DNA of 64,000 nt from an uncultured Spirochaetota bacterium (GCA_963845535.1 CAWJSK010000012.1:722339-786338), one strand, 5' to 3'. Shown: positions 11,811-21,169, numbered from the stretch's first letter. Numbers and translations: made by a program. Notes: a model not told the origin generated them from the sequence alone.

Positions 11811-13214
11811 TCAATCCGGGGTTTCCCTGCTCAGGCCGTGCTTTTTCAGCTTTTCGTAAAGGTTCGGCCTGGGAATTTCGGATATCCGAGCCGCCTGTGA
11901 GATGTTTCCGCCCGCCTGCGCCAGAAGAGCTTTCAAATATTCGCGCTCGAAATCGTCCTTGGCGGCTGCAAACGGCTTGACCAGGCTGTCCGCCAGGGGG
12001 CCAGGGCTGGCGGGAAGGTCCCGCAGGTTGGCCGGCAGGTCCTTCGGGAGTAGCTCGGTCCCCTCGGTGACGGCCACGGCGCGCTCCACCACGTTCTCGA
12101 GCTCTCGGATGTTGCCGTCCCATCTGTAGCGAAGGAACGCGTTCATAACCTCAGAAGAAATCCCTTTCACGTCCTTCTGGAACTCCAGCGCGTAACGGCG
12201 AAGGAAGTGATACGCCAGGAGCGACACGTCTTCCGTGCGTTCTCGAAGCGGCGGCACGTGGACCGTGATGACGTTGATACGATAGTACAGGTCTTTGCGG
12301 AATCTGCCTTCCTGGACTTCCTGCTCCAATTCCCGGTTGGTGGATGCAATGACGCGCACGTCGTTCGCGATGTCCTCCGTGCCGCCCAGGCGCTGGAAAC
12401 TGTGCTCCTGCAGGACGCGGAGCAGCTTCACCTGCAGCTCCCCGGACATCTCGCTGATCTCATCGAGGAAGATCGTGCCGCCGTCCGCGGCTTCGAAATA
12501 GCCGATCTTGCGGCTGTCAGCGCCCGTGAACGCGCCGCGCTCGTAGCCGAACAGCTCGCTTTCAAGCAGGTTCACCGGGATCACCCCGCAGTTGATGCCG
12601 ACGAACCTTTTCCCGGCCCTCGGGCTCTTCTCGTGGATGGACCTGGCCAGGAGCTCCTTGCCCGTCCCGCTTTCCCCCTGCAGCAGCACGGTGCTTCGAA
12701 GCGGCGCCACCTTCTCCACGAGCTGGAAGATGTCGAGCATCTTCTTGCTCCTGGCAATGATGGCCCCGCCGCCGCCCGAAAGGGCAAGGGACTCCCGCAG
12801 CGCGTTGTATTCACGCTTGAGCCTGCGGTACTCGAGGATCCTCTTGATGATCAACCCGAAAGCTTCGAGCTGCAGGGGCTTCAGCATGTACTCCTCAGCC
12901 CCGAGCTTCATTGCCTCCACGGCGGTCTTCACCGCGCCGTAGGCCGTCAGGATGATGACGGATGCGCTCTCATCGATCTTCCTGATCTCCTGCAGCACGC
13001 TGAGCCCGTCCATCTCCGGCATCTTCAGGTCGAGCACGATCAGGTCGTAGCTTGTTTTCTGCGCGAGCGTTATGGCCGTTGACCCGCGGGTTGTGGCGTC
13101 GACGGCGCACCCCATGCGCTGGAGAAACATCGAAAGCACGTCGAGGATGGCTTTCTCATCATCGACGATGAGGACCCGGCAGACAAGCTCGGCTGCAGCG
13201 GGAGTGCCGCTCAT
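11811..13214 (-). CDS. Sigma54-dependent response regulator (NtrC family)
   Basis: REC domain (RVLIVDDEK, LIVLDLKMPEMDG). AAA+ domain (GESGTGKE, ESELFGYERGAFTGA). C-terminal HTH (AARISEIPRPNLYEKLKK). The true start is M214 of the 680-aa ORF. Confidence 0.9.
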   Translation of the reverse strand: MSGTPAAAELVCRVLIVDDEKAILDVLSMFLQRMGCAVDATTRGSTAITLAQKTSYDLIVLDLKMPEMDGLSVLQEIRKIDESASVIILTAYGAVKTAVEAMKLGAEEYMLKPLQLEAFGLIIKRILEYRRLKREYNALRESLALSGGGGAIIARSKKMLDIFQLVEKVAPLRSTVLLQGESGTGKELLARSIHEKSPRAGKRFVGINCGVIPVNLLESELFGYERGAFTGADSRKIGYFEAADGGTIFLDEISEMSGELQVKLLRVLQEHSFQRLGGTEDIANDVRVIASTNRELEQEVQEGRFRKDLYYRINVITVHVPPLRERTEDVSLLAYHFLRRYALEFQKDVKGISSEVMNAFLRYRWDGNIRELENVVERAVAVTEGTELLPKDLPANLRDLPASPGPLADSLVKPFAAAKDDFEREYLKALLAQAGGNISQAARISEIPRPNLYEKLKKHGLSRETPD

Positions 13215-13304
13215 TTCTTCCACAGTAATCCATCCTCGGCGCGCGCGCAAGAACTGCGCGGCGCCTTGCAATTCCCGCGCTGAATGGGCATCCTGGGCGG
13301 ACAC

Positions 13305-14201
13305 ATGACAGCCCTCGCGCCAACTACCGGGAACCAGAGAGGCAAGGCGCTTCTCGCCCTGACCGCGTGCGCGCTCCTCTGGAGCACCGGGGGCCTCCTC
13401 ATCAAAATCGTTGACTGGAACCCGTTCGCCATCGCCGGGACGCGCAGCCTGATTGGCGGCCTCCTCATCCTTGCCGTGATCCGGCGGCCCCGGTTCACGT
13501 GGTCTTTCGCGCAGGTCGCCGGCGCCGTCACGTACGCCGGCTGCATGGTGTGCTTTGTGGCCGCCAACAAGCTGACCACCGCGGCAAACGCCATCCTGCT
13601 CCAATACACCGCCCCTCTGTACGCCGCGATCCTTGGCTGGGTTTTCCTCCGGGAGAAGGCCACCGCCATAGACTGGGCCACCATCGTCGTGGTGCTGGGC
13701 GGAATGGTGCTGTTCTTCCTGGACAAGCTCGGGGCCGGGGGAATGGCAGGCAACCTGCTTGCCATCGTGAGCGGCGTGTTCTTCGCAGGGACCATGGTGG
13801 CGCTTCGCAAGCAGAAGGACGGCTCTCCGCTCGAGTCGCTCCTGCTGAGCCACGCCATCACGTTCGTCATCGCCATCCCCTTCCTTTGGGGGCCGGCCCC
13901 GAGCCTCCCCTCCGCGGCAGGGCTCGCCCTGCTCGGAGTGGTCCAGATCGGAATCCCTTCATTTCTTCTCATCTACGGAGTCAGGCGCGTGACGGCCCTT
14001 CAGACGATCCTGACCTCCGTGCTCGAGCCGATCTTCAATCCGATCTGGGTGTTCCTGTTCCTTGGAGAGAGGCCCGGACCTCGCGCGCTCCTGGGCGGCG
14101 CCATCATCCTGGTTGCCGTGACGGCGCGCTCGGTGGTCAGCCTTCGATTGGCGGTCCGGCCGGCTGGTGTCGGCTCACAAGCAGAACACCGGCAAGGATG
14201 A
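13305..14201 (+). CDS. EamA/DMT family transporter
   Basis: About ten hydrophobic helices in two EamA-like halves (LLWSTGGLLIK, LLQYTAPLYAAILG). Confidence 0.8.
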   Translation: MTALAPTTGNQRGKALLALTACALLWSTGGLLIKIVDWNPFAIAGTRSLIGGLLILAVIRRPRFTWSFAQVAGAVTYAGCMVCFVAANKLTTAANAILLQYTAPLYAAILGWVFLREKATAIDWATIVVVLGGMVLFFLDKLGAGGMAGNLLAIVSGVFFAGTMVALRKQKDGSPLESLLLSHAITFVIAIPFLWGPAPSLPSAAGLALLGVVQIGIPSFLLIYGVRRVTALQTILTSVLEPIFNPIWVFLFLGERPGPRALLGGAIILVAVTARSVVSLRLAVRPAGVGSQAEHRQG

Positions 14202-15071: not shown

Positions 15072-15128
15072 CGCTACCAGAATGGATAAATCACCGCAAC
15101 ACTTCGAAGGGTAGGACCGTCATGAAGT

Positions 15129-16115
15129 CTACTGCTTACAAAGGGCGGTTGGAGCGTTTTTGTCGATAAACTCTTTATGTGCAGCGGGCAACGGAAAAAG
15201 GGCTTCCGGCTTATTGAGATCCAAGACCAACGTCCCGGCGCAGCATTTACGATTCTCGCGCCCCTCAGAATATAAATCGACCAAATGTTTCGGTTCAGTC
15301 CTCGGTATCATCTTCGCGCAATGTTCTGAAAGCTGAGTACATACGATGCGGAAGTTTTTCAGATTCTTGTGCAGTTCTTTGAATATGATTGGCAATGGAT
15401 GCTTCGCTCTACCCCTAGCAACGGAGAAGACAATAGTCGAAGGGCTCACGGCAGCGCAAAGCTTTCGAACAAACGATTCTATTGGTGTTCCCGTTCCACC
15501 GCCATGATGAGGGAAAACCAGCAAAGGGGCACTGGCGTCGGCACCGTCAGCGAGCAAGTCGTCGAGCCCAATCTCATCCAAATCGCCGGGCAAAAGAGCC
15601 AAAGGCTTTCCGTCCAGCAGAAGACGTACTACGACACTCAGAGAGTTGCTTCGTATTTTGCGCTTGAAGCGTTCCTTGCCGTTTACTCCCTTTCCAACGA
15701 GGTATTTGCTAGGCCCAAGGATCTGAACTTGAACGGAGCCCTGATTGTACTTACCAAAGTCGTCGCGTGCGATAGATGTTTCGAGAACTATTCTGCCTTT
15801 GAGAGATTCCTGATTAAGAACAAATAGCAGATCATCCCAAACCTCAGTTCCTTTGGAGGCATCGCCGTTGAGGCAAACTCGGGCTATATCAACAGTTTTT
15901 GCGGCCAATAGGGCCACAAGCCCTCCGATGTGATCTTTGTCCGCATGCGAAAGAAGTAATACATCTATTTGTTTGATTTCTTGGGTTTCGAGGAATTCTA
16001 ACAAGGCGCTTCCGGCTCCCGAATCGATTACTACAACACCCCCTGAGTCGCTCAGCACCGCGCTGTTACCGTGGCCGACGTCAAGTACCGCTAGACTCGG
16101 CCTTTTGTAATGCAT
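15129..16115 (-). CDS. Stand-alone ComEC/Rec2-type metallo-beta-lactamase fold hydrolase (candidate nuclease effector)
   Basis: LAVLDVGHGNSAVL, LLLSHADKDHIGG (15930-15947), NSLSVVVRL, LLPGDLDE, LVFPHHGGG and AKHPLP, in ComEC MBL-domain order. ATG 16115 lies 1 nt after the upstream TAA. Confidence 0.75.
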   Translation of the reverse strand: MHYKRPSLAVLDVGHGNSAVLSDSGGVVVIDSGAGSALLEFLETQEIKQIDVLLLSHADKDHIGGLVALLAAKTVDIARVCLNGDASKGTEVWDDLLFVLNQESLKGRIVLETSIARDDFGKYNQGSVQVQILGPSKYLVGKGVNGKERFKRKIRSNSLSVVVRLLLDGKPLALLPGDLDEIGLDDLLADGADASAPLLVFPHHGGGTGTPIESFVRKLCAAVSPSTIVFSVARGRAKHPLPIIFKELHKNLKNFRIVCTQLSEHCAKMIPRTEPKHLVDLYSEGRENRKCCAGTLVLDLNKPEALFPLPAAHKEFIDKNAPTALCKQ

Positions 16116-16116
16116 A

Positions 16117-16779
16117 TTACTGAACTTCCCATTCACATACATAGAGCTCGTCTGCACTATCCGCGCCAATGTTCACTTGCGCGTAGAAACGCATATCAGT
16201 TTCTATTTTGCCTGATAGCAATGGCGGCAAATCCGCAAAATAGATTCGGATCTTTTGATCGGCATTCCACCCCGGCACCACGATGTAGAAGTACTCCCCT
16301 GATTCATCCACTTGGGTTATGCGCACAAGAGTTCTCCAAGGCTTTCGACTCGGGTTGTATTTGCCCGCACTTTCTTTGAGACAACGTTCAAAACCTCTGA
16401 CAATAGTATCTGGATTGTATGTCGATGGTCTCAATAGTATTGGGATGAATCGACGCTTGCTTCGAAGGAGCGTTATGTCAGCATCATCGTAAGTTGTGCA
16501 AAGTAAAGCGGGAAAGCGCCCGATATTTGATAAGGCAACAAGTTGGTCACCATCAAAGGGCGAATAGCTCCTTATTCGCAGGTGATAATCGCAAATAATC
16601 GCATCAGCTTTCGCATGGATTTCCTTTAGAGATGATTCGAGATTCCGCAAGGGGCCAAGCTCGAATACCGGTGCTAGTCCCATATCTTCAATAGAGTAGC
16701 CATAGCTTTCCCGGGATTCTTTCTCGTCGTCTACAATAGCTACGCGCTCGATTTTTCGCCCTTCAATAGTCAGCGCCAT
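16117..16779 (-). CDS. Receiver (REC) domain protein with an unassigned ~80-aa C-terminal domain
   Basis: VAIVDDEK (acidic pair D17/D18), AIICDYHL (D64, codon 16588-16590), LLCTTY (T95/T96), and FIPILLRP where Arg replaces the usual Lys. The C-terminal beta-rich segment WRTLVRITQVDESGEYFYIVVPGW has no motif I recognise. Confidence 0.7.
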   Translation of the reverse strand: MALTIEGRKIERVAIVDDEKESRESYGYSIEDMGLAPVFELGPLRNLESSLKEIHAKADAIICDYHLRIRSYSPFDGDQLVALSNIGRFPALLCTTYDDADITLLRSKRRFIPILLRPSTYNPDTIVRGFERCLKESAGKYNPSRKPWRTLVRITQVDESGEYFYIVVPGWNADQKIRIYFADLPPLLSGKIETDMRFYAQVNIGADSADELYVCEWEVQ

Positions 16780-16781
16780 TT

Positions 16782-18845
16782 CTATTTCCCCAATACAGGC
16801 AATCTGATTATCATTTCCGCGCCTCCCAATAAGCTGTGCTCAACTGCGTCGACCTCCCCGCCAAGATCGGAAACACTGTCTCTTACTATCGCCAAGCCCA
16901 AGCCCGTTCCATTCCTTCTGGTCGTTTCACCTGGCAGCCAAATATCCCGCTTCGAGATGCCAATTATGCCCGGACCGTTGTCTTGCACGTTCAGCGAGAA
17001 CAAGCCACTTTCTACGCTGGTCTGAATATGAATAATGCGTCTCCCAACGGTAGATTCCTCGAGAGCAGCCAAGGAATTGTTCAAGAGATTGGTAACAATG
17101 GACTCGATTGCAGCTTCACTTCCTCGCAAATAGGGAGAACCTTCGCAGTAGGTTGCTAATACTTCAACATCGCGGCCTTCTGTGAAAGGCTTGAAAGTCT
17201 CCAGCACGCCGCGGATAACTTGATTCAGTTCGACTCGCGTAAGTCTACGTTTTTCGTGATCGAGCAACTTCGAAGTAACCGCACTAAGAACCGAAAGCCT
17301 CTCTGTAGCCCTGACGATCGTTTGGACTGGCCTTTCTAGCTGTTGTGAATAGGCGACGCCCAGTGCAGCACGGGCTCTCCGCTCAATCGCATCAACTGCT
17401 ATGGTGATTGCTTTTAGGGGGTTCCCTTTCGATTCGTGTGCAAAAGTCGCTGCGGTTATTCCTGCGGTGCTAAGAGTCCGGTAGAGTTGGATTTCTCGTC
17501 GGAGTTTGTCTTTGTCTGATTCTTGAGCGCGCTCATACGCTTCTGCGGCTTTCTTGATTTGCTCGCGGGCCGGCTCATGAGCCCTTTCAATTGCTTCAAA
17601 TAGCTTCTTCTTAGTTGGCTTTTCCGCCTCCAAGGCGACCGATCTTTCTTTTGCCCGCCGCGCTTGAGCGACGTCAAGGCGTCTACGCGCCATCCACTCA
17701 CATGTATCTTGCGCAAACCGTCGTAATTCCCGAAAACTCTCGGTTTCGATAAAACCAGACCGATCAGTCTTTTGAAGGAGGACGGCGCTTCTGTCAAAAG
17801 CGACGACGCGCCCAATCACAGTATTTGTGCTAGGTCGTTCCTCAGGGCTACGTACACGAGCGAGGTTGAGCTCAAGCCAATCATTTCCTGGATCTCCGTA
17901 TGGCGAAACCCGCAACTCGTTTTGATATAGATGGACCCCTCCGAAAACATCAAGCCACCGTCGGACCTCGCCAATTGTTGAACTCCGAGTTGAGAAAGTC
18001 GTACTGTCAAGTATAAAAACCCAGAGATCGAATTTTGCGGAAGGGCAACGATAATGCTGATTGCTTCCTTGGGTCAATTCATCGTGAGTAGTTACAAAAA
18101 TCTGCTTCCCTTTCCAATCAACAATGGAAGCATTTGCTCGACCATTTTTATCCACAGTCGCGATAAGATGATATTCAGCATCATCAAAATAGCGTTGCTG
18201 AACAAGTTTCTCAAATTCGGCAAACTCAGGCGCAATTAGGACAGGCCTAAATCCCTCTGGGCTATCGCCAAAGGGATCTGCGAGAAGGATTAGCTCCCGC
18301 GCTAGTCTTCTAACGTCAGACCGAGTGATCTCCGTTGTCAGATCTTCTAGATAGATCGTCGTTCCGTGGGAATCATTTTCTTTTCGTTGAGAGGACTCAA
18401 TTGTTAGATTTACTTCCTCTACTATCTCCGCCCGTTCAAAATCCTTCCAGTCAATAAGCAGGTTATGCTCTTGCCTCGAATCTTCTTTTGGCCTGGTCGT
18501 CAGCAACGCTCGACTCCCAAGACGTAAGGCAGCAAGTCGTCCCAGCCCCTTGCTTCCGGATGGAGTTCTGCCCAAAATGGTTCGTTCAGCCACTAGCTTC
18601 CCGGAACGCCCCAACACAAGCCAGCCAGTGATGATTTCGTCAACACCCATTCCACTTCCATCATCGCTTACAGTAATAGTTCCGCCAGCTCTCTCGGTAT
18701 TCGTCAGGAGTATAGTGCAAGAGTGTGCGTCGGCGTCGTAAGCATTCTTTGCAAGCTCCAGAATTCCTCTATCCGGATGAGGGTTTAACTCCTCCCCAAG
18801 GCGACGCAAAATGTCTGGAGCAAATCGGAACTGTGCTTTGATCAT
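16782..18845 (-). CDS. Dual-GHKL protein: N-terminal MORC/Hsp90-like ATPase fused to a C-terminal histidine-kinase core
   Basis: N-terminal Bergerat boxes: ELAKNAYDA, VSDDGSGMG, GSKGLGRLA. A coiled-coil-like K/E/R-rich stretch spans about aa 390-455. H-box TFAHESKGNPL (His470 codon 17436-17438); N-box NLLNNSLAAL; G1 VQDNGPGI; G2 GTGLGLAIV. Confidence 0.8.
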   Translation of the reverse strand: MIKAQFRFAPDILRRLGEELNPHPDRGILELAKNAYDADAHSCTILLTNTERAGGTITVSDDGSGMGVDEIITGWLVLGRSGKLVAERTILGRTPSGSKGLGRLAALRLGSRALLTTRPKEDSRQEHNLLIDWKDFERAEIVEEVNLTIESSQRKENDSHGTTIYLEDLTTEITRSDVRRLARELILLADPFGDSPEGFRPVLIAPEFAEFEKLVQQRYFDDAEYHLIATVDKNGRANASIVDWKGKQIFVTTHDELTQGSNQHYRCPSAKFDLWVFILDSTTFSTRSSTIGEVRRWLDVFGGVHLYQNELRVSPYGDPGNDWLELNLARVRSPEERPSTNTVIGRVVAFDRSAVLLQKTDRSGFIETESFRELRRFAQDTCEWMARRRLDVAQARRAKERSVALEAEKPTKKKLFEAIERAHEPAREQIKKAAEAYERAQESDKDKLRREIQLYRTLSTAGITAATFAHESKGNPLKAITIAVDAIERRARAALGVAYSQQLERPVQTIVRATERLSVLSAVTSKLLDHEKRRLTRVELNQVIRGVLETFKPFTEGRDVEVLATYCEGSPYLRGSEAAIESIVTNLLNNSLAALEESTVGRRIIHIQTSVESGLFSLNVQDNGPGIIGISKRDIWLPGETTRRNGTGLGLAIVRDSVSDLGGEVDAVEHSLLGGAEMIIRLPVLGK

Positions 18846-18846
18846 G

Positions 18847-20136
18847 CTACTTATCCCACCAAGGGGTCTCCCTTATTGCCGCAACCGTAAGGTGCCGGCA
18901 TCTAATACGTGAATTGAGCCAATCGCTAGTCCTCGATCTTTTCATTCTTTGAATCAATTGACGACACGTCTTCACCTGCCCATTACGAGGACTGCACACA
19001 ATCAAGTGATTCTCGACCGCGACGGGTCGCGCTCCCGTAATTAGTGTACATATCGCCCTGTGACCATCTTCAGGTCTAGACGTTCGGCGGATTACGACAA
19101 ATGGCGGCTCGAAAAGGCGTCCTTTAAAACGCCGCCTCTCTCTGATTCGTTTGACTTGACTCCAACTAGGAACCGATCGTGCATGGAGGTACGCCACCAC
19201 AAAACCTCTTTGTGGATGGCGATGGGGAACGACCGATCCGACGTGCACGTCGAACAAATCGCCGACAAGGATTTGCCCTTTGTTTGGCCTGCCAAACCAA
19301 AGCTGGTTTTGAGATTTCTTTGGAAATGGCTTCTTTTTCGTATCAAGGATGAATACGTCAATATCAGCCCAAGGATCAAAAAGCCCACAAGATCGGACAC
19401 TTCCTACAGAACTATTTTCGGAAACCATATCTCGCCATCTCTCGAAGCGGCTTCCAGAGCGCAGCACGTCCGGCAGGATTGCTGTAATTCGTGTTCCGGC
19501 AGATGAATTAATAAGACTCGCCTCAAGGAAGACTGCTGCCGCCGTTAGCTTGCCAGCCGCCCAATTGCATCCTTTGGGCGCTTTTACGAAGCCATAAGGT
19601 GGATTCATAATGACCCAAGAGGCTCTTACGAACAGATCAGTGGCAGTAAGCCCGTTATCGACTCGGATGAGAGGAAATAGCAAATTCAGTTCTGAGATCT
19701 CGCACCTTACGGAATCTCCCGTTCGTTGTCGCGCCATCATGAGTAGCCTTGCCTTGGCCGCTCTCACAAACTCTTTATTGGTGTCGCACCCCGTTAAATG
19801 AGAACCCCAAAAATCAAGGGTAGCAACGAGACTGGGAAGGACGGGCAGACGCTGAGCGGCAGCTAGCAACAGGTCGCCGGCGCCGCAGGTAGGATCAAAG
19901 AATACAGGCATCAGGGTTGAACTGTCGAAATGTGGAACAGCTCGCCTTGCGAGAGTTCTTCCAGTAAAAAATGCGCCAATCCTGCGACGCGTTTTGAGAC
20001 TCAGAACACCTGCGAGTTGGCGACCAGGCTCCCCGTCAAGTGCAAGGGCAACGCTCTTTGTCCAATCATTTCCTTCGATTGCGGGCTGAGTCGCCATACT
20101 TTCTAGCTGTTCAACATAGGGCCGAAAAGCTTTCAT
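18847..20136 (-). CDS. Gamma-class N6-adenine DNA methyltransferase with a TaqI-like C-terminal target-recognition domain
   Basis: GAFFTG (motif X-like), FFDPTCGAGDLL (motif I, 19873-19896), IMNPPYG (motif IV, NPPY at 19594-19605). RBS AAGGTGG lies upstream of ATG 20136. Confidence 0.85.
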   Translation of the reverse strand: MKAFRPYVEQLESMATQPAIEGNDWTKSVALALDGEPGRQLAGVLSLKTRRRIGAFFTGRTLARRAVPHFDSSTLMPVFFDPTCGAGDLLLAAAQRLPVLPSLVATLDFWGSHLTGCDTNKEFVRAAKARLLMMARQRTGDSVRCEISELNLLFPLIRVDNGLTATDLFVRASWVIMNPPYGFVKAPKGCNWAAGKLTAAAVFLEASLINSSAGTRITAILPDVLRSGSRFERWRDMVSENSSVGSVRSCGLFDPWADIDVFILDTKKKPFPKKSQNQLWFGRPNKGQILVGDLFDVHVGSVVPHRHPQRGFVVAYLHARSVPSWSQVKRIRERRRFKGRLFEPPFVVIRRTSRPEDGHRAICTLITGARPVAVENHLIVCSPRNGQVKTCRQLIQRMKRSRTSDWLNSRIRCRHLTVAAIRETPWWDK

Positions 20137-20350
20137 TTTTCCACCTTGGGATGATAACAGAAACCCGCCGTGAAATGAAATGCCAATTCCAGCACTCCCC
20201 TGTCGGACATACTCGCAGCCTTCTGAGATTTGTTACAGAGAGTCACGCCAGGGCAAAAACCCGGGCACGTAATCGTTTACAATTGCGGATGACATTTATT
20301 AATATAGTGACACGTCACGTAACCATTTGTTAGGGAGCTTGTCAACCAAA

Positions 20351-21169
20351 ATGAGTGTAATCCGCGGCACAACCATCCTTCTCACGGGCGCCACGGGCGG
20401 GATTGGCCTGGCCTGCGCGCGCGCCCTTGCAAGCTCGGGCGCCAGGCTGCTCCTTCATGGGCGGGACACGGGGAAACTCCGCTCCGCGGCGGAAGAGGCA
20501 GCCAGGCTTGGCGCAAGCGTGGATACGTTCGTCGCTGACCTGTCCTCCCTGAAGGAAACCGCGACCCTGGCCCGTGAGGCGGCGCGGGCGGGCCCGCTTG
20601 ACGTCCTCATCAACAACGCCGGCGTCGGTTTCGGGCGGGACGGCAACAGGCGGGAGCTGAGCAGGGACGGGCACGAGCTGCGTTTCGCGGTGAACTACCT
20701 GGCCCCGTTTCTCCTCACGGAGGAGCTGCTGGCCCGGGGCATGCCGAAGCTCGCGGTAATCAACGTGGCTTCCGCCGGCCAGGAGGCCCTGGATTTCGAC
20801 GACCTCCTGAGTGAGCGCGGTTACAGCGGCGTACGGGCATACTGTCGGAGCAAGCTCGCCCTGATCATGATGAGCTTCGACCTGGCCGCGCTCCATCCGA
20901 CGCTCCAGGTCCAGGCGCTGCACCCCGGGACCTACCTCGACACGGGCATGGTGCGTGAAGCGGGTATCACGCCGCTGGGGCCGGTCAGCCAGGGCGTGGA
21001 GTCCATCCTCGCCGTCCTGACGACGGCTCTCACCGGCGGAGCATCAGGGGGCTACTTCGACCGGGCCAGGCCCGCGCGCGCACTCGCGCAGGCGTACAAC
21101 ATAGCAGCCCGGCAGAGGTTGAGGGAGGCAAGTCTGAAGCTCATCAACCCCTGGCGCTCCGAGCTCTAA
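20351..21169 (+). CDS. Short-chain dehydrogenase/reductase (SDR)
   Basis: TGATGGIG cofactor motif and the catalytic YCRSK. Confidence 0.85.
   Translation: MSVIRGTTILLTGATGGIGLACARALASSGARLLLHGRDTGKLRSAAEEAARLGASVDTFVADLSSLKETATLAREAARAGPLDVLINNAGVGFGRDGNRRELSRDGHELRFAVNYLAPFLLTEELLARGMPKLAVINVASAGQEALDFDDLLSERGYSGVRAYCRSKLALIMMSFDLAALHPTLQVQALHPGTYLDTGMVREAGITPLGPVSQGVESILAVLTTALTGGASGGYFDRARPARALAQAYNIAARQRLREASLKLINPWRSEL

Follow-up and report, generated by a model that had tools for sequence, protein, structure and literature searches.

Ambrosia of Pseudomonas aeruginosa, which has been validated as an antiphage system, consists of the XRE regulator AbrR, the N6 methylase AbrA, the histidine kinase/HSP90-like ATPase AbrB, the receiver protein AbrC, and the HNH protein AbrD (van den Berg et al., bioRxiv 10.1101/2025.09.30.679545). 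All five proteins are needed for defense, and both the AbrB substitution N40A and the AbrC substitution D60A abolish it (10.1101/2025.09.30.679545). A reporter was induced upon infection, and the authors propose that the system is induced transcriptionally (10.1101/2025.09.30.679545). Here, we describe a predicted relative of this system in a window of 64,000 nucleotides, the whole stretch of DNA that was analyzed, from an uncultured Spirochaetota bacterium (GCA_963845535.1, CAWJSK010000012.1:722339-786338); all positions are counted from its first nucleotide. The gene under study is an open reading frame (ORF) of 687 amino acids (aa), from ATG to stop, on the minus strand (16782-18845). It is the second gene of a four-gene operon and encodes a kinase with two GHKL ATPase modules.

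Two further groups of proteins are close to this kinase. A catalogue published in 2021 described soluble proteins composed of HATPase_c_3, a DHp-like domain named HEF_HK, and HATPase_c, an arrangement found in 174 of 222 sequences (Bellieny-Rabelo et al. 2021, PMC8011034). In that survey, 91.6% of HEF_HK proteins are linked to a divergent receiver named Response_reg_2, and they are enriched near restriction-modification (R-M) genes and related to paraMORC proteins (PMC8011034). The paraMORC ATPases themselves, in which GHKL and S5 domains are combined, sit in R-M operons with methylases and nucleases (Iyer, Abhiman & Aravind 2008, PMC2292703).

Judged from its sequence, the gene in the window is predicted to encode an AbrB-type kinase belonging to a cassette of the Ambrosia family that has another effector, another receiver output domain, and no XRE regulator. 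For AbrB, the comparison covered the first 399 of its 747 residues, as given in Table S1 of the Ambrosia preprint, which also holds the sequences of AbrA, AbrC, and AbrD. The kinase family profile aligned with AbrB residues 1 to 399 over 354 columns (hhalign; probability, 99.85%; E, 1e-30), which span the GHKL and middle domains and include the middle-domain motifs PYG-DP-x-DWL and RRV-x-PE. According to the same table, AbrB carries HATPase_c_3 and HATPase_c, the same two domains as the window kinase. Residue N40 of AbrB, the Mg-binding Asn of the N-terminal GHKL module (ELVKN40AYDADA), corresponds to N34 of the window kinase; since AbrB N40A is defense dead, this module is functionally required in the Ambrosia kinase. 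The upstream methylase was 37% identical to AbrA over 345 aa (BLASTP; E, 7e-69), with FFT, DPxCGxG, and NPP motifs in common. Downstream, the receiver profile matched AbrC across the receiver domain with a probability of 90.5%, and D64 of the window protein was aligned with AbrC D60 (hhalign).

The window kinase is a single soluble protein that holds two intact Bergerat-fold modules. A sequence-only reading of this gene had proposed as much, and the N-box, G1, and G2 motifs that it quoted are found at the residues that it gave. The first module, a MORC/MutL-type GHKL ATPase, occupies aa 1 to 165 (18351..18845, minus strand). Its N-box (E30/N34), G1 box (D61-G65), and G2 box (G97-G102) lie within E30-LAKNAYDA, D61-DGSGMG, and G97-SKGLGRLA of the translation; the codons of E30 and N34 were checked directly. 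The Pfam domain HATPase_c_3 matched aa 28 to 162 (E, 5e-21; 75.5 bits against a cutoff of 25). When a profile of 44 homologues was compared with PDB sequences, aa 28 to 121 matched MORC2 (E, 2e-5), MORC3 (E, 1e-4), and also MutL. Residues E30, N34, D37, D61, G63, G65, G97, K99, G100, and G102 are invariant in the 44 homologues. With a Bergerat fold that has the catalytic Glu, the Mg-binding Asn, and the G1 and G2 glycine loops, the N terminus is predicted to belong to the MORC/paraMORC ATPases.

The second module (aa 456 to 687; 16785..17480, minus strand) comprises a DHp domain with the H-box FAH470ES and a CA domain (N586/N590, D622-G626, and G646-G650). H470 lies within T467-FAHESKGNPL, and its codon (CAC, 17436-17438) was checked directly. 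Pfam HATPase_c matched aa 577 to 684 (E, 7e-17; 62.4 bits against a cutoff of 26.4), and with it both domains of the proposed architecture scored above their Pfam cutoffs. The region from approximately aa 440 to the end (~685) aligned with the DHp and CA domains of AtoS, ZraS, NifL, CpxA, and others in NCBIfam models, and the profile of 44 homologues matched aa 446 to 685 to ZraS in the PDB (E, 9e-16). Invariance in these homologues extends to H470, E471, N586, N590, D622, G624, G626, G646, G648, and G650. In agreement with this, the C-terminal third of the AlphaFold2 (AF2) model superposed on the DHp and CA domains of ZraS, CpxA, and HK853 (Foldseek; E, ~1e-12). The complete kinase core around His470 that had been read from the sequence is thus borne out. 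An H-box DHp domain, a CA domain with N, G1, and G2 boxes, and an adjacent receiver together make the protein a putative two-component sensor histidine kinase.

The region between the two modules, previously described as unassigned, could be given a tentative identity. In a structural comparison, this region and the GHKL domain jointly superposed on the ATPase module of MORC2: the N-terminal ~470 residues aligned with DNA-bound human MORC2 (9cdh_B) over 470 columns (Foldseek; E, 8e-11), with a TMt of only 0.46 and a query model pLDDT of 76.5. We describe it as a middle alpha/beta domain resembling the MORC transducer/S5-type region (aa 166 to 368; 17742..18350, minus strand), with approximate borders taken from AF2 secondary structure. 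It contains the invariant motifs PYG-x-PGNDWL...RxxSPEERPSTN...QKTDRSGF and its conservation extends to AbrB and to the plasmid kinases of Campylobacter and Bacteroides (hhalign probability, 99.8 to 100%). A long charged, coiled-coil-like helical linker follows (aa 369 to 455; 17481..17741, minus strand), which is continuous with DHp helix 1 in the AF2 model. Helices were predicted at aa 369 to 406, 409 to 420, and 424 to 471, the last running into His470, and 21 K/R and 14 D/E were counted among the 76 residues of aa 385 to 460, as expected for the linker that had been noticed earlier. The same holds for the reported lack of membrane and sensor segments: no transmembrane helix was found (highest Kyte-Doolittle 19-residue mean, 1.06), and PAS, GAF, and Cache domains gave no Pfam match even at an E of ≤10.

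Given that no conventional sensor domain is present, the suggestion that the GHKL module stands in the place of a sensor is reasonable, and the AbrB N40A phenotype backs it indirectly. It is not new, and the input is less unusual than was supposed. Kinases with HATPase_c_3, DHp, and HATPase_c beside divergent receivers and R-M genes had already appeared in the 2021 catalogue (PMC8011034). Furthermore, the N-terminal module has thousands of relatives; the N-terminal 440 residues alone retrieved 5278, 3045, and 452 clusters (50% identity) at E values of ≤1e-3, 1e-10, and 1e-30, respectively, and most of the best-scoring clusters are 680 to 750 aa long. We also considered whether the kinase is a GHKL restriction enzyme of the BbrUII/HgiDII type, or part of a classical type II R-M system, and rejected this. 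The NCBIfam model covers only aa 28 to 185 and scores far under its cutoff (E, 1e-18; 67 bits against 550), and the PADLOC REase_II matches are confined to aa 8 to 176.

The gene preceding the kinase encodes an AbrA-like N6-adenine DNA methyltransferase of 429 aa (18847..20136, minus strand), assigned by BLASTP to AbrA and by motifs I and IV. Motif I (DPTCGAGD, D81-G87) and motif IV (NPPY, N178-P180) are at least 95% conserved in 19 orthologues; weak matches to MTase_II/mad2 in PADLOC and N6_Mtase/Eco57I in Pfam were also obtained. Its stop codon lies 1 nucleotide (nt) before the kinase ATG.

The gene following the kinase encodes a receiver-like protein of 220 aa (16117..16779, minus strand), with a divergent receiver domain (aa ~10 to 137) and a small beta-rich C-terminal domain (aa ~145 to 220). 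No Pfam match above threshold was obtained (best, Response_reg; E, 0.085). Its AF2 model (pLDDT, 90.7) shows a receiver fold over aa ~1 to 137, matching dozens of receiver domains in Foldseek (TMt, ~0.7; root mean square deviation, ~3.5 A), and then a beta-rich domain without a helix-turn-helix (HTH). Its invariant residues include D18 and D64, the latter (16588-16590) being the putative phosphoacceptor; D17 and T95 reach at least 90% conservation. The earlier nomination of this protein as the phosphotransfer partner is therefore plausible. R106, R110, and P113, near residue 117, are nearly invariant as well. For the C-terminal domain, Pfam, PHROGs, and PDB sequence searches returned nothing, PDB Foldseek matches were dominated by receiver domains, and BFVD gave weak matches to S1/eIF-1A OB folds (E, ~0.03).

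The last gene encodes a ComEC-type hydrolase of the metallo-beta-lactamase (MBL) fold, 328 aa long (15129..16115, minus strand) and presumably the nuclease effector. It matched Pfam Lactamase_B (E, 1e-11), and its nearest solved relatives are the beta-lactamase-like nuclease domains of ComEC (9ic4, E of 8e-11; 30bt, E of 3e-10). The mechanically called ORF begins with TTG at 16169, overlaps the receiver gene by 53 nt, and would give 346 aa. The real start is probably the ATG at 16115, because homology to the orthologues begins at about residue 23 of that ORF and this ATG lies 1 nt past the stop codon of the receiver gene. In the numbering of the 346-aa ORF, H75-x-D77-x-D79-H80 and H221/H222 are at least 95% conserved in 30 orthologues. 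A C-terminal Cys/His set outside the MBL core (C277, C284, C309, C310, H331, and C344) is conserved to the same degree and may form an extra metal-binding module. Assignments of this protein as PDC-M48B, LmuA, RTasMBL, Avs1a, or 6A-MBL were rejected, all matches being far under the cutoffs.

The methyltransferase, kinase, receiver, and MBL genes are co-directional and follow one another with near-zero spacing (junctions TAG-C-ATG, TAG-AA-ATG, and TAA-T-ATG). With their intergenic flanks they form a low-GC island (15082..20358), delimited by GC contrast and by a matching independent contig. The GC content of these ~5.2 kb is 49.6%, compared with 62 to 63% on either side, and the GC content at third codon positions (GC3) is 45 to 50% in the cassette genes versus 83% in the adjoining SDR (dehydrogenase) gene. 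An independent metagenome contig of 5285 bp (L061) is 99.4% identical to window positions 15082-20358 and does not extend past the island borders into the high-GC host genes. A second contig of 5283 bp from a different sample (L060) holds nothing but the four genes, here from a homologue with 65% identity. Such stand-alone contigs of ~5.28 kb suggest either a discrete unit that some members of the population carry and others do not or breaks in the assembly where the GC content shifts. The island was horizontally acquired. No convincing direct or inverted repeats flank it, island-sized contigs carry no terminal overlap, repeats, or inverted ends, and a promoter and terminator scan gave nothing better than shuffled sequence. 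Neither an HNH nor an XRE ORF is present in the island. A low-GC mobile island, with an AbrA-like methyltransferase upstream of the kinase and an MBL nuclease downstream, argues for an immune, R-M-like cassette rather than a regulatory two-component system. Within the window, the cassette lies among metabolic genes. A sigma-54 activator (receiver, AAA+, and Fis-type HTH) is encoded at 11811-13853 on the minus strand, with ~225 unassigned residues before its receiver domain; it lies in host-GC DNA ~1.3 kb from the island and probably has nothing to do with the cassette.

More than 2500 relatives of the kinase were found in the databases, and the best 120 are nearly all ~685 to 715 aa long with the same two Pfam domains. 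Gene order was compared on contigs from one genome per species. The order methyltransferase, kinase, receiver, MBL recurs in ~30 genomes from at least 12 phyla, with unrelated flanks. These include Verrucomicrobia, Latescibacterota, Planctomycetes (Phycisphaerae and Brocadiaceae), Spirochaetes, Bacteroidota, Pseudomonadales, Acidobacteria, Gemmatimonadetes, Actinobacteria (Acidimicrobiales and Schaalia), Chloroflexota, and Geobacteraceae. In every homologue, the receiver gene abuts or overlaps the MBL gene. In all cyanobacterial copies (L017, L019, L022-L030, L032, and L034) and one spirochaete copy (L033), the kinase, receiver, and MBL genes occur without the methylase, and the upstream genes are unrelated, e.g., EF-G-like GTPase or ribosomal-protein neighbors. 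In a Nostoc locus (L036, 6001-8520) and in a metagenome-assembled genome of Vicinamibacterales (L037, 6001-7723), the kinase is in pieces and the MBL gene is truncated; these copies look like decaying cassettes.

Several copies are found on mobile DNA. The full cassette is present on a conjugative Burkholderia megaplasmid, next to ParDE, where the RefSeq names of its products are "type I R-M subunit M," "ATP-binding protein," "response regulator," and "MBL fold metallo-hydrolase." It is also present on three IMG/VR contigs. On one of them (L057, 291-8753) it lies directly downstream of genes for a tail protein, an endolysin, an Rz-like spanin, and a separate phage DNA methyltransferase, a position that is typical of prophage-borne accessory (moron) genes. 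Neighbors in other genomes, some of them known or candidate defense genes, include HEC-02A/B (E, 1e-118 and 2e-64), HEC-03B, an HmaA/BrxH/DrmD-like helicase, and PIN/RHH toxin-antitoxin genes. Protection against phage by the window cassette is predicted, indirectly, from mobility, defense-gene neighbors, and prophage carriage.

Distant full-length homologues of the kinase share 23 to 27% identity with it (hhalign probability, 100%; E, 1e-39 to 1e-41). On Campylobacter pTet plasmids, a kinase homologue is accompanied by a 331-aa receiver protein and dcm, and on a Bacteroides plasmid by a 209-aa receiver-like protein, an HNH gene, and an N6 methylase. The setting in mobile operons that characterizes MORC and paraMORC proteins is thus found here, with an N6A methylase and an MBL gene at the window locus and with dcm, Vsr, or HNH plus N6 methylase beside the distant relatives. 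In the Campylobacter coli pTet locus (L053, 6001-10431), dcm is convergent; 41 Campylobacter plasmids were matched, and the pTet-type plasmids of C. jejuni and C. coli that carry the homologue are conjugative.

The explanation that we favor, with confidence only slightly above even, is that the gene product is an AbrB-type sensor kinase serving a mobile immune cassette of four genes, which belongs to the Ambrosia family and whose relay switches on an MBL nuclease. In this scheme, the kinase would be a soluble dimer joined through its DHp helices. The N-terminal GHKL and transducer domains would act as a MORC/MutL-like, ATP-driven clamp on nucleic acid or another infection cue, possibly discriminating DNA that is devoid of the mark of the cassette methylase. 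ATP-dependent closure would travel via the coiled-coil linker to the DHp domain, the CA domain would then autophosphorylate His470, and the phosphoryl group would pass to Asp64 of the cotranslated receiver protein. Through its small beta-rich C-terminal domain, the phosphorylated receiver would activate the MBL nuclease, leading to degradation of invading DNA. A clamp-like input, transmission through the coiled coil, and a relay from His470 to Asp64 appear most likely, judging by how the protein is built, by its conserved catalytic residues, which do not vary, and by the phenotypes of N40A and D60A in Ambrosia. We infer the nature of the signal, its direction from the MORC module to the kinase, the transfer to Asp64, and an activation of the MBL protein that would be post-translational and not transcriptional. 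This last step is suggested because the receiver protein carries no HTH, its gene abuts or overlaps the MBL gene, and its C-terminal domain shows weak hints of an OB fold. ComEC itself pairs an OB fold with an MBL nuclease domain of the same type, which makes an OB-like adaptor acting with the MBL protein attractive but unproven. Stated in its strictest form, the hypothesis is that the MORC-like clamp reads invading DNA or its methylation, phosphate passes from His470 to Asp64, and the OB-like domain directly licenses the ComEC-type MBL DNase. Such a phosphorelay-gated nuclease would be the ancestral and most widespread form of the system, with at least 12 phyla and a three-gene core; we offer this version tentatively and regard it as rather doubtful.

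It should be noted that several observations weigh against the favored explanation. PADLOC and NCBIfam list no named defense system for the cassette proteins, and there is no full MADS match. Methylation by AbrA gave phage no protection (10.1101/2025.09.30.679545), so that a simple sensor for which unmethylated means foreign is not established, and support from Ambrosia comes from a single preprint (10.1101/2025.09.30.679545). The methylase is missing in the cyanobacterial copies, which makes the kinase-receiver-MBL triad the core and methylation not essential to it; the methylase is either dispensable for the core or supplied in trans. The AF2 model of the kinase is of moderate quality (pLDDT, 76.5) and falls below 50 around His470. 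In the receiver protein, residue 117, the position of the universal Lys of CheY-like receivers, is Arg in the window and K, R, T, S, or A across the family. Given this variable Lys position, the phosphorylation-coupled switch may differ from that of canonical receivers. Finally, the receiver C-terminal domain could bind DNA as a regulator.

This last point leads to the main rival, a transcriptional model as proposed for Ambrosia, which we consider unlikely, if a serious contender. The kinase would sense infection and phosphorylate the receiver, which would bind DNA with its C terminus and induce the operon; the methylase and the MBL protein would form an inducible R-M-like pair, and the receiver would not touch the nuclease. 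Induction of the reporter upon infection and the authors' own scheme speak for it (10.1101/2025.09.30.679545), as does the homology of AbrA, AbrB, and AbrC to the methylase, kinase, and receiver domain of the window. The weak OB-fold matches likewise suggest that the receiver C terminus may bind nucleic acid. Beta-rich DNA-binding output domains are known in response regulators, LytTR being an example. Against this, the receiver C terminus is unlike the helical one of AbrC and carries no HTH, the island has no XRE/AbrR gene, the kinase and receiver genes are located inside the very operon that would be induced, and no promoter signal rose above shuffled controls.

An improbable alternative assigns the MORC-like module another role, as a DNA-manipulating ATPase that is not a sensor but loops or compacts DNA and recruits the nuclease, as has been proposed for paraMORC proteins in R-M systems, with the His-Asp relay as its regulator or timer. 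The occurrence of paraMORC GHKL+S5 proteins with methylases and nucleases in R-M operons would fit such an effector (PMC2292703), as would the Foldseek match to DNA-bound MORC2 and the match of the kinase N terminus to the BbrUII/HgiDII N-terminal region (E, 1e-18) and to PADLOC REase_II. The kinase core and the receiver Asp are invariant, however, and the predicted helix that runs unbroken from the middle domain into DHp has the geometry of a signaling helix between sensor and kinase. A motor function of this kind is compatible with the sensor-kinase explanation; the two are not mutually exclusive. That the genes form a housekeeping two-component system of the ordinary kind, with an odd sensor in the cytoplasm, which regulates host genes and has no part in defense, the framing implicit in the sequence-only reading, is very improbable and was rejected on context and composition: the database names "sensor histidine kinase" and "response regulator" and the metabolic genes around the cassette favor it, whereas the low-GC island (GC3 of 45 to 50% versus 83% in the neighboring gene), the constant MBL linkage and usual DNA-methylase linkage across phyla, plasmids, and prophage, the homology to a validated antiphage system, and the receiver without HTH output all oppose it.

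How MORC-type ATPases convert engagement of nucleic acid into a downstream signal is a question for bacteria and eukaryotes alike. Among possible outputs, a histidine kinase lends itself best to measurement, since phosphorylation can be traced directly. The family is large, with thousands of clusters, is carried by clinically relevant plasmids such as Campylobacter pTet, and has been tested in one preprint, with a different effector. With no obvious transcription-factor output and with a methylase-free three-gene core, the MBL variant offers a compact system in which to study His-Asp gating of an immune nuclease, and it would help to clarify what the methylase contributes in hybrids of R-M and two-component systems. 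If the phosphorelay-gated reading is true, the cassette would be a case of post-translational immune signaling in which a DNA-sensing GHKL ATPase controls a nuclease, unlike the transcriptional scheme put forward for Ambrosia. If the cassette is only another inducible R-M-like system, the gain is incremental and amounts to a known family with a newly exchanged effector. For specialists the surprise is modest, and the variant is a tractable route to signaling by MORC-type ATPases.

Compared with paraMORC and with MORC2/3, the window kinase is alike in its N-terminal ~370 to 470 aa with GHKL motifs, in the MORC-like fold, and in the setting of methylase/nuclease mobile operons (PMC2292703). As C-terminal extensions of paraMORC proteins, the 2008 paper describes nucleases, TIR domains, and uncharacterized regions and no histidine kinase core (PMC2292703), whereas the window module is fused to one through a coiled coil. 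HEF_HK proteins have an identical architecture, a DHp His followed by Glu, no membrane segment, and an adjoining divergent receiver without a known output domain, and their pairs are associated, like the window cassette, with DNA methylases and nucleases (PMC8011034). That survey emphasizes C5 methylases, HNH_2, and Vsr as neighbors, mostly in Proteobacteria, and the passages of it used here do not list an MBL partner (PMC8011034). The HEF_HK and Response_reg_2 models (PF19191 and PF19192) gave no match in the window proteins at an E of ≤10 in the Pfam copy used, which is uninformative since full-length Campylobacter, Enterobacter, Bacteroides, and Burkholderia plasmid relatives gave none either, and the models may be missing from this copy or too narrow.

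Detocs, a defensive two-component system, reportedly consists of a TPR-sensor kinase (DtcA), a buffer receiver (DtcB), and a receiver-PNP effector (DtcC) that cleaves ATP. The concept is shared: infection is sensed by a histidine kinase in the cytoplasm, phosphate goes on to a receiver protein, and this receiver exerts post-translational control over an immune effector. The window cassette differs in using a GHKL ATPase as its sensor and a separate MBL enzyme as its effector, and it includes a methylase. No sequence relationship was detected; none of the four window proteins matched the Detocs (Dtc) models in PADLOC, and TPR and PNP domains are missing from them.

Although the kinase architecture has been known since 2021, the widespread variant with an MBL effector and its three-gene core appear undescribed, and our literature search found no paper describing an MBL-bearing version of the cassette. 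Ambrosia is among the closest known systems, and the differences lie in the effector, the receiver output, the regulator, and the distribution. Where Ambrosia has the type IV-like HNH protein AbrD (213 aa), the window cassette has a ComEC-type MBL hydrolase (328 aa). The receiver C terminus is beta-rich and could not be aligned with the helical, winged-HTH C terminus of AbrC, and the XRE regulator AbrR has no counterpart in the island. The role of the methylase, required yet nonprotective in Ambrosia and missing in cyanobacterial copies of the MBL cassette, is puzzling. Ambrosia has been reported from Gammaproteobacteria only, whereas the MBL cassette is found in at least 12 phyla, without the methylase in Cyanobacteria. 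For all these differences, Ambrosia and the window cassette are alike in being four-enzyme hybrids of an R-M and a two-component system.

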